A stretch of 32,223 bases of DNA from a virus: the UHGV virus genome UHGV-1520234; one strand, 5' to 3'. Of the stretch, positions 2,351-23,001 are shown in pieces (position 1 is the stretch's first letter; every line of letters begins with the position of its first letter). Both the position numbers and the translations under genes were made by a program. The notes beneath the pieces are model-generated. The model was not told the origin of the DNA. It did no database searches and was given only the letters and a program-made list of their open reading frames with translations.

Positions 2351-3546
2351 GACTCCACCGTTATAACGATATTTCCCGGGGTACAGGACGCAGATTCGTT
2401 GTATCTGATATCAATGTTTGATGACGACAAAGCCCCCGGGGATTTCCCAATCGTCAGTTCCTGAATATCGTAATAGCGTGCATTCCCGCCACTCACCACG
2501 CCAAGATTCGCCGGTGAGTAAATGCGACTTAAAAGGACTGAATCACCAATCGTCAGACTATTGATATAGTCGGAAATAGCCTGCTGGATCTGCTGCCCTA
2601 TCTGTGAGGTATAACCCGTAAAAACTTTTAATTTGATCCGGGCATAAACAGGTACATCACTGGAACGCGAGAACTTGATTACATGGGGATTGCCGTATTT
2701 ATCCGGAACCATAACGGATGTTGTACCGTGAGTGGCTGTCCCCTGACCTTTATTCCCTCTGATAGCCTGAGCAATATCCGTCACATCACCGCCATCCACA
2801 ATTACAGCAACAGAGTGTGGTGGTAACCCGTTACCGTCCTCCGAACCAGTATCGTTTTCATAGAGTTTGTGGCGGGTTACACCGGTAACATTAGAAACAG
2901 CACCATCCAGTGCTTCAAATGGGGTTATTGATGGCAACGCAACACTTTGCGACTGACGGATACGTAACTCCGCGTCAGTTTCTGCCGGAGTGCCCACAGT
3001 AGCCGCAGCAGGATTAGTTACCGAAACCCAGCCACGGGTTGGCGTATTAATTTCAGTGATAGTTCCAGCCAGCGCCGCCACTGCACCACTGACGGAACAT
3101 GTTGCGGTCGCCATCACTGTACCATCCACGCCGACCACTACTGAAGCAGGCAAACGCCATATCACATTATTACTGTCTTTCACGCTGCCATTAATGATGG
3201 TTGTTCCGGCAGTTCCTGTAAGAAGCAAATCAACCGTAGAGTTCGTCGCGCCTTTACGTGAAATACCATTTATTTTCACGTTACTGGTCAGTGCAGCCCC
3301 ATAGCCGGTTGCCGGTGAAAAACAGTTGTAGACAGTTATCGCCATATTATTGGCATCATGAATCGCCAGCGCCATCAGAGCCACCATCTGGCCGTCTTTG
3401 CTGTCCGGTTCGAGGTAGGCATCACTGCCATAAATCTGCTGAAAATAGCTAATCAGGGTGCTGAGTATCGTCTGATAATCAGGCGCACTGATCCCCTCCG
3501 CGGTTACCTTTGCAGATAAACCGAGAGAATCAAGGTTCAGAGCCAT
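2347..3546 (-). CDS. Baseplate J-like protein (Mu gp47 family)
   Basis: 399-aa ORF with an ATG start; size and position match baseplate J-like proteins of Mu-like contractile tails. Confidence 0.6.
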   Translation of the reverse strand: MALNLDSLGLSAKVTAEGISAPDYQTILSTLISYFQQIYGSDAYLEPDSKDGQMVALMALAIHDANNMAITVYNCFSPATGYGAALTSNVKINGISRKGATNSTVDLLLTGTAGTTIINGSVKDSNNVIWRLPASVVVGVDGTVMATATCSVSGAVAALAGTITEINTPTRGWVSVTNPAAATVGTPAETDAELRIRQSQSVALPSITPFEALDGAVSNVTGVTRHKLYENDTGSEDGNGLPPHSVAVIVDGGDVTDIAQAIRGNKGQGTATHGTTSVMVPDKYGNPHVIKFSRSSDVPVYARIKLKVFTGYTSQIGQQIQQAISDYINSLTIGDSVLLSRIYSPANLGVVSGGNARYYDIQELTIGKSPGALSSSNIDIRYNESASCTPGNIVITVES

Positions 3547-3899
3547 TACGCCTCCGATGTAACAGTCGTTATTCCATAAAGAGTGTCGATTTCAGCGGAA
3601 AACATGACACGTCGGGTCGTGGTATCCACCGTCGTATTGAAAGAGAGGATTGATTTAACGCCCCGCGTTTCGAGGATGCGCTTACGGATCGCCAGGTTGT
3701 AGGTTTCCGGCTTCTGCTTACCGAGTACGGACTGGATCCACGGAGTCCCCTCGGTGGTGTCGAGAAACCATTGCCCATACCACAATTCGAATCGCGTTTT
3801 TACCGCCTGCGCCACGGCCTCCGGTGAGTTAATCAGCCAGGTATCATCGCCGCTGCCAAAGGTGTAATCACAGTCGGCGTCTTCGCGTCTGTATCGCAT
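3546..3899 (-). CDS. Baseplate protein (Mu gp46 / gpW-gp25-like)
   Basis: 117-aa ORF tightly coupled to its neighbours in the conserved Mu-like baseplate order. Confidence 0.5.
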   Translation of the reverse strand: MRYRREDADCDYTFGSGDDTWLINSPEAVAQAVKTRFELWYGQWFLDTTEGTPWIQSVLGKQKPETYNLAIRKRILETRGVKSILSFNTTVDTTTRRVMFSAEIDTLYGITTVTSEA

Positions 3900-4651
3900 C
3901 AGTTCACCCCGTCTGTGTTGCTTCCGCCTCGCTGAACCCCGCCGTGCGTGTGCGTATCATCAATTGACTTGCCGTTAGCCTTAACGCTCCCCAAGAACTC
4001 AACAGCACCAGTGATTTTTGAAGCCACACCAGAAACAACAGACCCCACCATGCCCCCCATCCAGGTTAACAGGCCATGAATGGTTACTTTCTCAGAAAAA
4101 TCAGCCAGAGGGGCAACCACATCAAGACCACCCGGAGCGACAATTTTAATTTTCCTGGTGTCAGGATTAAGCTCAAAATAGGTGCTGCCGTCGTCACTAC
4201 GCAACTGTGTGGCACTGGTATTAATACCGCTAATCTTCCTCGCCTGCGACTGGGGACCGACAATACAAAACGCATCCGATAAATCATGCATTCTGTCATC
4301 GACCGGCTCCTGTATCCCGCCACTCTGCCACCAGAAATCAATACAACGATCGGCAAAAACGACAAGACACTCATCCCCGGCTTTTACCGGAAAAGTCAAC
4401 GTGCAGCCTCCGCCGCGCGGGAATACCACTGGCACATCCACCAGCAGGGGTAATGTCGTCGACTGGTTGATTCCATTTGAGTCCGGCTCATAGCCTTTAA
4501 TCGCAGGTTGAACAACTACCGTTACCGTGTCCGGATCAAATGACTGGACAATTCCGGGCAGAGAAACACGCAGTGCCGACATGACAGAACCAGCAAGTCT
4601 TACATCGGCCTGTTCTTTGCTACCAAGTTGAGCGCTTAAAGAAACGGGCAT
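3899..4651 (-). CDS. Baseplate spike / assembly protein V-like (Mu gp45-like)
   Basis: 250-aa ORF, ATG at 4651 preceded by GGAG; N-terminal region (PGIVQSFDP...LPLLVDVPVVFPRGGG) resembles gpV/gp45 spike proteins. Confidence 0.55.
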   Translation of the reverse strand: MPVSLSAQLGSKEQADVRLAGSVMSALRVSLPGIVQSFDPDTVTVVVQPAIKGYEPDSNGINQSTTLPLLVDVPVVFPRGGGCTLTFPVKAGDECLVVFADRCIDFWWQSGGIQEPVDDRMHDLSDAFCIVGPQSQARKISGINTSATQLRSDDGSTYFELNPDTRKIKIVAPGGLDVVAPLADFSEKVTIHGLLTWMGGMVGSVVSGVASKITGAVEFLGSVKANGKSIDDTHTHGGVQRGGSNTDGVN

Positions 4652-4670
4652 TCATATGTCTCCAGAAAGT

Positions 4671-4698
4671 AAAAAACCCAGCCAAAGCTGGGTTTTTT
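4671..4698. terminator. Bidirectional intrinsic terminator between ant and the baseplate spike gene
   Basis: A6 tract, stem cccagc (4677-4682), loop caaa, stem gctggg (4687-4692), T6 tract (4693-4698); the hairpin is followed by a U-run on both strands. Confidence 0.65.
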
Positions 4699-4711
4699 AA
4701 GTTGTCAATTG

Positions 4712-5626
4712 TCAGTAACGATGCAGTGAAGGCGGCAACTCTTTGTTCTTAAGTCTTACCCATGCGGAAAGATTCGTTGGTCCGTCTGGCTCATTGATAT
4801 CAACATCTCGTGTGTGGTTGATTAAAACGTCTCTCGCCATTCCGATAACATACGAAAACTCATGACCGTAGTCGTAGCATCTTCCGGAATAGTTCGATTG
4901 AATTTGTTTTAATGCCGGATACAGTTCGCGGAATAATGCCTGTGATCGGTTAGCATAATCCCACAACCATACAAGGCTGTTTGCTTCTTTTGCAGAAAGC
5001 TCGTTGGTGCTCTTCTCTTGTTTGCCAATGAACTCACCTTCAAGTGGAACTCGAGCTGCAAGTGACAGTGCTTCGGTAAACTGCTCCTCACTGATTTCTT
5101 TGTACGAACAGCCAAAATGAGATTTCAGTGACGACCACATGGTGATCATCGCCTTCGCCTGTTTTTCTTTTGGCAGAGACTGACCGCGACTCATGACGAG
5201 TTGTTTAATAGCTTCCTGCTGTTCAGTGGTGATTTTACCCGGCAACGCCTTTTTAGCTTTCGGTGTATTTCCGTAAGACCCCGTTTTACGAATGGATGGC
5301 AAAACTTCAGCTGTCACCCATTTGCGGAATTTGTGCGGGACTGAACCTTTATTGACGGCATCACGGCAGCGCAGAACCAATGTATACATACCTGATTCGC
5401 TCACAATGCTTAAATTCTGCTCACCACCAAGGGTGTAACTTAAAGTTACTCCCTTCTCATCGTCATCAAGTGCAGTAAGCGCCTTGCGTGAGTTAGTCAG
5501 AGTTAAAGCATCACAAACATCTTTTGCTACAAACCACGGCTCACCGCACCTGTTGATGACGCGGATTTCACTGTCGCCGAATTTGAAGATGGTGAAATCG
5601 TTTTGTGCCTTTGCTATACTTTTCAT
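4712..5626 (-). CDS. ant: Antirepressor (Bro-N domain, P22 Ant-like)
   Basis: 304-aa ORF with an ATG start; N-terminus ([30 protein letters not shown]...[12 protein letters not shown]...[12 protein letters not shown]) matches the Bro-N antirepressor signature. Lies downstream of an arc-like gene as in P22 immI. Confidence 0.7.
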
Positions 5627-5966: not shown

Positions 5967-6290
5967 ATGTCAGAAAAATTTCCCAGCCAAATGCAAGACA
6001 AGTTCACCGTGAGGTTTCCTGACGGATTGCGCGATGCTATAGCTGAACGAGCTAAACGTAATGGCAGATCAATGAACTCAGAGATTGTGCAGATACTGGA
6101 AGATGCCTTGAATGCAGAAAATACTCTTGGGGAAATAGCAGATAAAATTAACAGCGTCTCGGTTCCGCTAAATGTTGATGCGCTAGTTCAACTTCAAGCC
6201 CAAGTTATCGCCATGCAAAAAGAAATACAGGAAAAGTTCAGAGAGCAGAACGAAAAGTTGAGAGAACTGCTAAACAAAAAACCCACCTGA
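5967..6290 (+). CDS. mnt: Mnt-like ribbon-helix-helix repressor with C-terminal coiled coil
   Basis: 107-aa ORF, ATG with GAGGTGAG RBS; N-terminal RHH motif (FTVRFPDGLRDAIAERAKRNGRSMNSEIVQILEDAL) and heptad-like C-terminus. It is one of only two plus-strand genes and is divergent from arc-ant. Confidence 0.6.
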   Translation: MSEKFPSQMQDKFTVRFPDGLRDAIAERAKRNGRSMNSEIVQILEDALNAENTLGEIADKINSVSVPLNVDALVQLQAQVIAMQKEIQEKFREQNEKLRELLNKKPT

Positions 6291-21350: not shown

Positions 21351-21902
21351 TTAGCCCATCATTTTTCTATACGCCTCTGCAGCCTGCTCCGGAGTTAAGT
21401 TGGTAATTTCTGTTCTGACTGGTCCTCCATCAGCGCCAGTCACTTCATTTTTGACGTTGTCTTTAAACGCCTGAACAGAAACATGACGCCCAAGCAACTC
21501 AAGGTTTTTAACCTTATCAGGCCATTTGATTTTCTTCAGGAGTGCGGCGCTATCTGCGGATACCATCTCCACGACATCCATTCCCGATAACGTTGTGCGC
21601 CATACCTTAGGCCAGTCTTTAATGGGTTTTAGCTCACCGTTTTGCAGGAGAATGTCAAGCACATCCATCTGGTCGATTTCAATAAGGCGATTAAGTACAT
21701 ATTCTGCATTAATACCAACAAGATCATTGCGTTGCGCTTTCAGTTCGGCGATTCTTAACTTGATGTCAGGTTTTGACAGGTTTTCGGATGCGGTACGGTT
21801 AGCTGTCTTTGCGCTGTACCCCGCCCGAATAGCCGCTTGCGTGGCGTTTAAATCGATGAGGTACTCGCGACAGAACATTTCTTGCTTGTCGGTGAGTGCC
21901 AT
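21351..21902 (-). CDS. Terminase small subunit
   Basis: 183-aa ORF with N-terminal [22 protein letters not shown], a recognisable small-terminase DNA-binding motif; directly upstream of the large terminase. Confidence 0.7.
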
Positions 21903-21926
21903 AGTTTTCTCTAGAGGGTTTCTTTA

Positions 21927-22163
21927 ATGAACTCAAAGCAAATTTTTTACCGAAATACAGGTCATGATAATGAAACTTATATATTCCTGGACAAATTGGA
22001 CAATGGCTCCTACCAAGTCAGGGTTGGTCATTCGTCGCCTGTGAGCCATTTTGAATGGGAGGGTGATGAAACCATTCAGACAGTGGAAGAGTTTCTAGGT
22101 TCTAACCCATCATATACTGAACGTGTTCATCAACTAATTTCTGAGTTTGAAGCAGAATCGTAA
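21927..22163 (+). CDS. Hypothetical small acidic protein, antisense to the late operon (moron candidate)
   Basis: 78-aa ORF, ATG at 21927 with GAGGG 8 nt upstream; AT-rich with rare codons (ATA, AGG, CTA, CGA); divergent from terS with 24 bp between the start codons. Confidence 0.4.
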   Translation: MNSKQIFYRNTGHDNETYIFLDKLDNGSYQVRVGHSSPVSHFEWEGDETIQTVEEFLGSNPSYTERVHQLISEFEAES

Positions 22164-22458
22164 TCACCACCCAAGCGACTCAACTGATATCTAGTTCATC
22201 ATTACTAGGACTAAAAGTAGATTCCTGACATTGAGGGACCTCTTTATCCGCTTGTGGGGATATCAGTTAAGTTATCCCGTGTAGGGTATAAGCCATTGTC
22301 GAGACCACTCATTGAATGGTCTCTGCAATAACCGATGTCTTTCCATCAGTCCGCCACCACAAAGAATCTTTTTTGCCATAATGCAGGAGGTTCATCTTTC
22401 AGTGGCTGCCAGTGTTATTTCCCCACTTACTGGCTTGGGTTGTTTCGCTGTACTGCCG

Positions 22459-23001
22459 TTAATTAGTGAGTCCGGGGATTACGGTTTGCCCGTGCTGTTC
22501 AAGGCGTTCAATTCTCGCCAGTAGCTGAGGCTTCTTAATTTTTCCCCAGCGATTAAGCAGGCGCCCTGACATGCTGGCAACATCCTTCTCTTTCATGTAC
22601 TCCAGCATTACGGCATTTCTCTCTTCTTCAAATTGACGATGACCAACCTGAAGCATGGCGTACATCCAGTTAAATGCGTTGATGTAAGCAATTTTGATAC
22701 GCATTGCTTCTTTTTTGGTGTAGGACATAACCAAAAGCATCAACCCATCCTTGCGGAGACGGTAGAATTTTTGCGGCTTACCATTCTGTAACTCATTGTT
22801 TTTATAGCAAAGCTCAAAGTTGAGCTTTGTATCAAACTCAGGAGGGCAAGCTTCTATGGTTCGTTCAATGTCACGAACCACGTTCTTCGGCAGCTTTCCA
22901 AATGCTTTTGCCACCATAAAAGAATCTGTAACCGGATCGTTGTTTGCTACAAAAATTAGGTCTCTGAAATCTATATCGTTAACAACGGTTGGGTAGTTCA
23001 T
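22459..23001 (-). CDS. rha: Rha-family phage regulatory protein
   Basis: 180-aa ORF with an ATG start; N-terminal region (VAKAFGKLPKNVVRDIERTIEACPPEF...NFELCYKNN...YRLRKDGLMLLVMSYTKKEAMRIKIAYINAFN) matches the Rha-domain pattern. Located between lysis genes and terminase, as rha is in P22. Confidence 0.55.
   Translation of the reverse strand: MNYPTVVNDIDFRDLIFVANNDPVTDSFMVAKAFGKLPKNVVRDIERTIEACPPEFDTKLNFELCYKNNELQNGKPQKFYRLRKDGLMLLVMSYTKKEAMRIKIAYINAFNWMYAMLQVGHRQFEEERNAVMLEYMKEKDVASMSGRLLNRWGKIKKPQLLARIERLEQHGQTVIPGLTN

Follow-up and report, generated by a model that had tools for sequence, protein, structure and literature searches.

An acidic 78-residue protein gene head-to-head with terS in a lambdoid Escherichia coli prophage, a probable cargo of the accessory slot taken by pid in P22 and BTP1

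Prophage-expressed accessory genes shape host metabolism, virulence, and phage resistance. The classical moron of Juhala et al. 2000, of which lambda bor and lom and HK97 gene 15 are examples, is said to bring its own promoter and its own terminator inside the inserted DNA. Closest to the locus described here is the pid moron locus of the Salmonella phages P22 and BTP1 (Cenens 2013, PMC3573128; Wolput 2022, PMC8835761), whose product, a small ORFan protein, relieves the repression of the host dgo operon in carrier-state cells and whose discoverers described a moron locus with another insert, or none, in related phages. We studied a plus-strand open reading frame (ORF) encoding 78 amino acids (aa), hereafter ORF78, in the virus genome UHGV-1520234 (32,223 nt, the whole of which is referred to as the window). 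The window represents an E. coli prophage of the lambdoid/P22-like kind, with its late operon on the minus strand in the order holin, lysozyme and Rz (24586-23348), rha, a gap, terS, and terL (21348-19726), and ORF78 lies in the gap. With a probability that we put at roughly 70%, ORF78 is one of the cargo genes that occupy a hypervariable accessory slot located head-to-head with a particular Terminase_2-type terS in lambdoid/P22-like prophages, the same slot that is occupied by pid. ORF78 would then be a new cargo family in a known moron slot, i.e., an ordinary kind of thing with an instructive architecture.

The two loci correspond closely. Like ORF78, pid comes after rha and a conserved block (elements A and B, described below), precedes the packaging genes, and is antisense to the late operon; no other gene from rha to the packaging genes is on the plus strand in P22 and BTP1. 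Both products are small and acidic (86 aa and an isoelectric point (pI) of 4.7 for Pid; 78 aa and pI 4.6 for ORF78), and they gave no BLASTP alignment with one another at E ≤ 100 and fell into separate clusters. Directly upstream of pid, P22 and BTP1 preserve, as a fossil, 250 bp from the 5′ end of a window-type terS, 75% identical to positions 21652-21901 of the window. In P22 the fossil occupies positions 735-980 of locus L001 (about 40745-40990 of NC_002371) and corresponds to the initial ∼62 codons of a terS of the Terminase_2 type, to which P22 gene 3 is unrelated. P22 also has orf80 and orf59c, which the window lacks, and ORF78 therefore abuts terS directly.

The 5′ end of terS accompanies cargo genes well beyond these phages. 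Its codons 1-30 are nearly frozen at synonymous sites (identical at 12 of 13 and 14 of 15, vs ∼40% further in), and they include the ultra-conserved stretch GACAGAACATTTCTTGCTTGTCGGTGAGTGC followed by CAT, which is also found with cargo as a terS fossil. A 31-nt motif taken from the conserved 5′ end and scanned for in IMG/VR returned at least 119 DNA stretches, with at least 128 motif hits when loci already in hand are included; the counts that follow refer to the matches listed. Among the distinct sites with enough flanking DNA, 85 of 94 had a divergent ORF that begins no more than 40 nt away and encodes at least 60 aa, as against 25.5% of random positions. The products of the slot formed more than 40 unrelated blastp clusters, which include DUF2158 (at least 21 members), a 90-aa membrane protein (at least 9), Pid (at least 4), and the ORF78 family (at least 6), as well as DUF2441, DUF4145/HEPN-like, and DUF6173 proteins. 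The distance from the cargo start to the terS start is 13-35 nt across slot occupants and 24-27 bp in the homologous loci L004, L005, and L007, where the genes downstream differ. At 17 of 88 distinct sites terS is truncated to a fossil, and 13 of these still have cargo. In L007 the initial 43 nt of terS recur 1 kb downstream of the homologue of ORF78 (4945-4987, 95% identical) and lie upstream of another plus-strand gene (5023-5352); two cargo units are therefore arranged in tandem there, each with its own terS stub. The slot is a compact, easily recognised site to mine for accessory genes, most of the more than 40 families being without known function.

In its conserved flanks, its hypervariable interior, and the large number of unrelated small genes that it takes up, a few of them encoding defence-like domains (DUF4145/HEPN-like), the slot resembles the hotspots of accessory and defence genes known from phages and satellites, those of P2 and P4 (Rousset 2022, PMC9122126). 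These hotspots differ in phage group and position, and the cargo of the present slot consists mostly of single ORFs of 60-220 aa. None of the tested slot cargo matched PADLOC at E ≤ 0.001, the single weak match being of the HEPN type at E 0.003, and defence is a candidate role only.

ORF78 itself is a genuine gene under purifying selection. It begins with ATG. As the original prediction had described, its start codon is exactly 24 bp from that of terS, it has its own ribosome-binding site (RBS; GAGGG at 21914-21918, 8 nt ahead of the ATG), and its 3′ end converges with that of rha. A word-indexed search of 5.8 billion proteins returned 13 homologue clusters at 56-99% identity, of which three are truncated or frameshifted and the intact ones are 77-79 aa long; the homologues counted as evidence for a gene are 78-80 aa at 60-99% identity. 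Searching 1.84 billion representatives exhaustively with a profile gave 17 hits at E ≤ 0.001; the small ones widen the family to 32% identity, and a few long repetitive proteins among the hits are seemingly spurious. In codon alignments of five ORF78 loci, nonsynonymous differences per site (pN) were 0.09-0.30 vs 0.7-1.0 for synonymous ones (pS), and the ratio of the corresponding substitution rates (dN/dS) was 0.05 and 0.09 in the two pairs with unsaturated dS. ORF78 matched no Pfam, PHROG, or PADLOC family, none of 19 family members matched Pfam at E ≤ 10, its profile matched no PDB sequence (best E 0.27), and tblastn against 50,697 deposited phage records found no homologue. PGAP annotates the product as a hypothetical protein, and a scan of genome contigs for relatives gave one irrelevant partial hit. 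The locus occurs in 12 of 5,426 complete E. coli genomes, as does the full 556 bp (21903-22458) comprising the gap between terS and rha. E. coli EH01-18-04-A (NZ_CP063515) is an example of a lysogen of the prophage, with 99.1% identity across the locus.

The predicted fold consists of four beta strands followed by two helices (AlphaFold2 (AF2) confidence score pLDDT 78.6-82.4). Its topology of antiparallel strands with a C-terminal helix is like the ββββ-α fold of PUR repeats and Whirly proteins (e.g., Borrelia Pur-alpha, 3nm7, and T. brucei MRP2, 2gia), and Foldseek aligned the model over its full length, as a weak match, to a single-repeat bacterial Pur-alpha. Sequence does not place ORF78 among PUR/Whirly proteins: there is no Pfam hit to PurA/DUF3276, and a basic surface is not what a pI of 4.6 and a net charge of −9 provide. 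Most family members are strongly acidic too, and because of this acidity we do not infer nucleic-acid binding.

This weak resemblance to a fold of single-strand nucleic-acid binders is one of the points in favor of a different view, in which ORF78 is a dedicated partner of terS (a packaging or pac-recognition helper, or a terminase regulator) and part of the lytic programme. The window, L004, L005, and L007 share the same type of terS at the same 24-27 bp spacing, and the leader predicted for ORF78 would overlap the terS start. We nevertheless consider a dedicated partner quite unlikely. More than 40 unrelated genes take the same position, and the sister phage L126, whose terS and terL are near-identical to those of the window, lacks ORF78 and has another plus-strand gene in its place. 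A partner of the terminase would also not be expected in only 12 of 5,426 E. coli genomes and in none of the deposited phage records, nor would a charge of −9 suit a binder of nucleic acid. Finally, distant ORF78 homologues are located away from any terS. In L252 (region 4303-5608) one of these, P0017, is part of a chromosomal island that also has YfjT-like genes, and at ∼1 kb from it are two candidate defence proteins, one ThsB-like with a TIR domain (PADLOC E 2e-31) and one of the PDC-M50A type. A scan of the neighbours of distant homologues gave no further hints, and candidate defence genes in one context and ∼1 kb off are too weak a basis for assigning a function.

The view that ORF78 is a horizontally acquired accessory gene, as originally predicted, was borne out by its purifying selection, its distinct composition, its replacement in L126, and the documented moron site of pid. 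Like a moron in the sense of Juhala et al., it is an extra gene between conserved neighbours, set against the late operon and polymorphic for presence and absence, as seen from the replacement in L126, the more than 40 families in the slot, and the occurrence of ORF78 in 12 E. coli genomes vs 2,274 of 5,426 for the flanking block. Its base composition deviates as well (39.2% GC vs 46.7% in terS, 43.1% in rha, and 49.7% in the whole window; GC at third codon positions 0.35 vs 0.48-0.62 in neighbours). Rare codons, which had been offered as a further sign of foreign origin, are not unusual at 6.4% vs 6.1-8.9% in neighbours.

Where ORF78 departs from such a moron is in its signals, and the originally proposed anatomy of promoter, gene, and silent tail did not survive comparison. 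The 24-bp gap between ORF78 and terS holds only two back-to-back Shine-Dalgarno (SD) sequences. At 102 unique sites the composition of this spacer is A/T-rich, then CC (the terS SD), then purine-rich (the cargo SD); filled by two RBS, the gap has no room for a promoter. The candidate promoter, homologous to that of pid, is instead ∼175 bp upstream and inside the terS flank. A scan of 21600-22600 found 0 terminator-like sites, and the 3′ flank of ORF78 has only a weak imperfect hairpin (z-score (z) −1.05). P22 pid, by comparison, has a 3′ Rho-independent terminator, the AAGCCGCT..AGCGGCTTTTTT hairpin (z −3.95), and strong hairpins or terminators occupy the 3′ flanks of both pid and the ORF78 homologue in L004. 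The promoter thus seemingly belongs to the conserved flank, terS, and therefore the coding cassette alone would be exchanged. Two smaller observations concern the spacer. Its palindrome CTCTAGAG is shared by both divergent RBS, each strand reading TAGAG(G/A) before the start codon, as in L004 and not in L007. An extended −10 (TGcCATwwT) at the terS start was considered as the cargo promoter and set aside, the three bases after CAT being A/T-rich without specific conservation; it may act as a secondary start, comparable to the S-band of P22 described below.

The pid promoter was mapped by genetics and differential RNA sequencing (dRNA-seq), with a transcription start site (TSS) 174 bp upstream of the gene and a 5′ untranslated region (5′UTR) called “exceptionally long”; in P22 and BTP1 the −10 element is at −181 to −186 and the TSS, at −174, follows it by 7 nt (Wolput 2022, PMC8835761). 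That study drew no link between the promoter or 5′UTR and terS (PMC8835761). We find that the mapped promoter, the TSS, and the 174-nt 5′UTR all lie inside the terS fossil. The distant weak promoter and very long leader of pid are explained because both are a terS relic, which gives this layout an evolutionary account.

For ORF78 the corresponding elements would lie inside a functional terS instead of a fossil. The predicted hexamers, antisense within terS codons 50-59, are positionally homologous to those of P22 (TTGCTT-17-AATCCT) in our alignment, and hexamers and 17-nt spacing are kept in the window, L004, L007, and L126, with the A2, T3, and T6 of the −10 the same. The leader predicted from the P22/BTP1 TSS position is complementary to codons 1-47 of terS as well as to its RBS. 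Codon usage in terS carries a related signature. The −10 is the antisense of Arg50-Ile51 in the RIAEL motif, and its last T demands AGA or AGG (AGR) for the arginine. Among the matches listed, Arg50 is AGA or AGG in 68 of 88 unique terS 5′ regions with the motif, vs AGR in 26 of 519 (5%) at other arginine codons in the first 80 codons, and it is CGC or CGT in all 7 of 7 unique homologues of terS that directly follow element B and lack a divergent gene (Fisher p = 8e-50 vs other arginines and 8e-5 vs terS without cargo, relatedness uncorrected).

If the homology extends to function, ORF78 would be transcribed from a weak sigma-70 promoter inside terS, starting at about 21762, and its mRNA would begin with a 165-nt leader that runs antisense across the start of terS. 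Like pid in BTP1 and P22, it would be expressed in lysogens or carrier-state cells from this weak constitutive promoter; pid reaches up to 1,110 transcripts per million (TPM) in BTP1 lysogens vs 2-36 for rha, and it is by analogy to these values that we infer lysogen expression of ORF78. Head-on late transcription would silence the gene during lytic growth, and transcription from the embedded promoter may in turn interfere with late transcription, possibly with antisense damping of terS. The acidic 9-kDa product would, speculatively, most likely exert its effect by binding a protein of the host or of a rival phage, comparably to Pid with its effect on dgo regulation, and not by binding nucleic acid. 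Taken together, these elements suggest a broader reading that we put forward as tentative, something that may hold and that we would not count on: an antisense promoter embedded in terS and kept by AGR at Arg50 would drive any cargo while laying an antisense RNA across the terminase start, silencing terminase in lysogens, and element B would be a new cis-acting structured RNA. If true, accessory-gene expression would be coupled to silencing of packaging in lysogens, with features general to many lambdoid prophages, and synonymous codon choice in an essential packaging gene would be constrained by an antisense promoter, a testable design.

Several points weigh against the cargo-gene explanation with its predicted promoter. 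The AGR codon statistics ignore shared ancestry. The hexamers are weak (3/6 and 3/6) and were missed by a consensus promoter scan. In P22 a 232-bp upstream fragment with both hexamers was inactive, so further-upstream sequence is needed (PMC8835761), and the upstream sequences needed in P22 differ in the window. Among the matches listed, at least 17 terS genes with a CGN codon at Arg50, as well as fossils too short to contain the promoter, still carry cargo; some sites therefore need another promoter or a processing site in the first 40 nt. Such cargo fits the S-band, a secondary pid transcript that was left unexplained (PMC8835761), the origin of which maps to the ultra-conserved first ∼40 nt of the terS fossil. 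The stability of pid mRNA depends on its 3′ terminator (PMC8835761); the ORF78 cassette has none, and its expression could be poor. Transcription of ORF78 in the window is, moreover, predicted from sequence and by analogy.

The same evidence raises the question of whether the main product is RNA, i.e., an antisense RNA that keeps terminase off in lysogens, the downstream ORFs being passengers. The conserved position of the promoter in terS with its codon-level signature, a leader predicted to cover the terS RBS and 47 codons, the synonymously frozen first ∼30 codons, and an architecture indifferent to cargo identity would all suit such an RNA. We find this doubtful, because the cargo ORFs are themselves under purifying selection, the Pid phenotype is protein-dependent and lost on frameshift, and the promoter and 5′UTR persist in P22 as a fossil that overlaps no live terS; the frozen 5′ end of terS could be a recombination anchor instead.

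On its other side, ORF78 is followed by 295 bp (22164-22458) that had been taken as the silent tail of the cassette. Only ∼53 nt of it (22164-22216) are cassette-specific, and the rest is late-operon backbone found in phages without ORF78: positions 22225-22458 are 92-99% identical in ∼200 phage records and are present in 2,274 of 5,426 complete E. coli genomes, and 22217-22469 is conserved backbone and not cassette. The edge is recognizable from a stub of a late-strand gene (MSGIYF*), the start of what in L126 is an intact 41-aa gene (ORF 3129-3254), and this stub marks the recombination junction at ∼22216/22217. The tail had also been said to be free of ORFs longer than about 35 codons. It is not strictly so, being overlapped by mechanical ORFs of 43 aa (22335-22466, plus), 70 aa (TTG start, 22312-22524, plus), and 35 aa (22272-22379, minus); indels among homologues argue that none of these is a gene. 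As sources of a small protein, the 35-aa ORF on the minus strand, a 41/70-aa plus-strand ORF, and P22 orf25 were accordingly dropped, since 1- and 2-nt indels break them and element B is kept with unrelated upstream sequence.

The backbone is made up of two elements. Element A, which abuts the rha stop codon, shows 93.6-100% identity across 82 loci, and its indels of 1 and 2 nt, e.g., a 2-nt insertion in P22, rule out coding; it folds with z −2.8 on the late strand and −1.4 on the plus strand, with little variation by which structure could be tested. Its plus strand also holds a perfect AGGAGG, read as CCUCCU on the late strand, without a usable start codon. Element B was found in 124 copies in the fetched viral loci (L014-L132), where the genes on both sides vary. 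In the upstream sequences that we read, it stands just after the stop codon or terminator of the preceding late gene and directly before the next SD and ATG, the next gene being variously DUF2560/orf80, terS, the 41-aa gene, or a Stx-phage gene. In mEpX1 a gene is inserted between A and B, and Stx2a phages have B alone.

Within element B, a hairpin of ∼15 bp (hairpin 1) is followed by an invariant GAYAATGGCTTATACCCTACACGGGATAACTTAACTGATATCCC and stands upstream of the first packaging gene in HK97, HK022, HK620, P22, epsilon34, Sf101, CUS-3, and Stx2 phages. Its inner stem is the inverted repeat of the original prediction, which had placed it at ∼22286-22309; the arms are actually 22301-22307 and 22317-22323, ∼15 nt rightward. 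The inner stem exists in four versions (GAGACCA/TGGTCTC, GAGGCCA/TGGCCTC, AAAGCCA/TGGCTTT, and AAGCCCA/TGGGCTT), and the outer stem also covaries (ATTG..CAAT vs ATTA..TAAT). Across 57 distinct sequences, its 15 pairs are 99.1% paired, five of them with compensatory changes, as compared with 38-50% in slid controls. Read on the late strand, 847 of 855 cells are paired, vs 711 of 855 on the plus strand, and one-sided changes on the late strand comprise 138 G.U vs 2 A.C. This covariation and the G.U asymmetry argue that hairpin 1 has been selected as RNA in the late minus-strand transcript, where it probably functions; judging from its position where the packaging module begins, it could serve in the processing or stability of the transcript or in controlling translation. 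Searches of Rfam 15 at permissive thresholds gave no hit at gathering score (best 19.2 bits vs a gathering score of 60). The late leader of ∼40% of complete E. coli genomes contains a covarying hairpin that is apparently uncatalogued, a candidate regulatory RNA of the late operon.

Two other explanations of the flanks were weighed against these data. The earlier idea that the 295-bp tail is a plus-strand small RNA, or the 3′UTR and terminator of ORF78, can point to an inverted repeat that is perfect in the window and to a cassette that lacks any other terminator, so that its transcript must enter the tail. It is very improbable in view of the conservation of the block in phages without ORF78 and the A.C mismatches and poorer pairing that result when hairpin 1 is read on the plus strand. 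No T-run follows the repeat (22301-22323) on either strand, as an intrinsic terminator would have; neither a promoter nor a terminator hit nor an Rfam family was found; and the BTP1 transcriptome tables (STnc RNAs) list no noncoding RNA between rha and pid. The known prophage small RNAs that we checked were likewise discarded, as AsxR and AgvB map 3′ of PR′ (the Q-S region) and the PasB probe sequence is absent.

According to the second explanation, elements A and B and the frozen 5′ end of terS are DNA-level recombination anchors (a “linker” of mosaic lambdoid phages) with neither RNA nor promoter function, conserved through frequent homologous exchange. Both flanks of the slot are indeed near-identical across otherwise mosaic phages, junctions fall at the edges of A/B and of the terS 5′ end, and element A varies too little for a test of structure. 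Exchange of DNA does not predict compensatory changes among four stem versions or an excess of G.U over A.C, the AGR bias is tied to the presence of cargo, and the −10 is functional by P22 genetics (PMC8835761); we thus judge anchoring without further function to be unlikely. The features discussed are collected in the table, together with hairpin 2 of element B.

Table. Position and basis of the features in and around the slot of ORF78 in the window.
Feature	Position	Strand	Basis or remark
terS, small terminase (Terminase_2)	21351..21902	-	Pfam PF03592, E 7e-40; conserved anchor of the slot
Predicted ORF78 promoter	−35 TTGCGT 21727-21732, 17-nt spacer, −10 GATTCT 21750-21755	+	antisense in terS codons 50-59; homology to P22 pid promoter
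Predicted 165-nt 5′UTR of ORF78	21762..21926	+	P22/BTP1 TSS position; 75% homology over 250 bp
terS 5′ motif GACAGAACATTTCTTGCTTGTCGGTGAGTGC + CAT, ultra-conserved	21869..21902		accompanies cargo genes, also as terS fossils
24-bp intergenic spacer with two back-to-back RBS	21903..21926		sequence; composition at 102 sites; palindrome CTCTAGAG at 21909-21916
ORF78, gene for 78-aa acidic protein, ATG start	21927..22163	+	ORF, homologues, dN/dS, AF2
Cassette-specific 3′ flank	22164..22216	+	no intrinsic terminator; homology with L004 ends at 22175
Stub of late-strand gene (SD AAGAGG, ATG, 5 codons, stop; MSGIYF*)	22211..22244	-	comparison of sequences beyond element B
Element B, conserved structured leader	22217..22332	-	directly upstream of first packaging-module gene
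Hairpin 2 of element B, GGGATA-10 nt-TATCCC	22257..22278	-	RNAalifold and pair counts; 7 pairs, 100% paired, invariant
Hairpin 1 of element B, ∼15 bp with internal loop	22293..22331	-	inner stem 22301-22307/22317-22323
Element A, non-coding block abutting rha stop codon	22334..22469	-	136 bp; blastn and alignment of 60 unique variants
rha	22459..23001	-	PF09669 and PF10549; PHROG 518; last accessory late gene before the A/B leader

In L126 the place of rha is taken by a 294-aa gene (3388-4272, minus strand) that resembles, by eye, a trypsin-like serine protease and is followed by a canonical terminator and then element B. ORF78 had also been described as one of only two plus-strand genes in the window. 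The minus strand is densely coding, and the sole other plus-strand ORF that occupies a gap in minus-strand coding is 5967-6290, so that the statement applies to ORFs in such gaps. This second ORF encodes 107 aa (MSEKFPSQMQDKFTVRFPDGLRDAIAERAKRNGRSMNSEIVQILEDAL...), has 15% rare codons, and resembles, again by eye only, an Arc/MetJ-type ribbon-helix-helix repressor.

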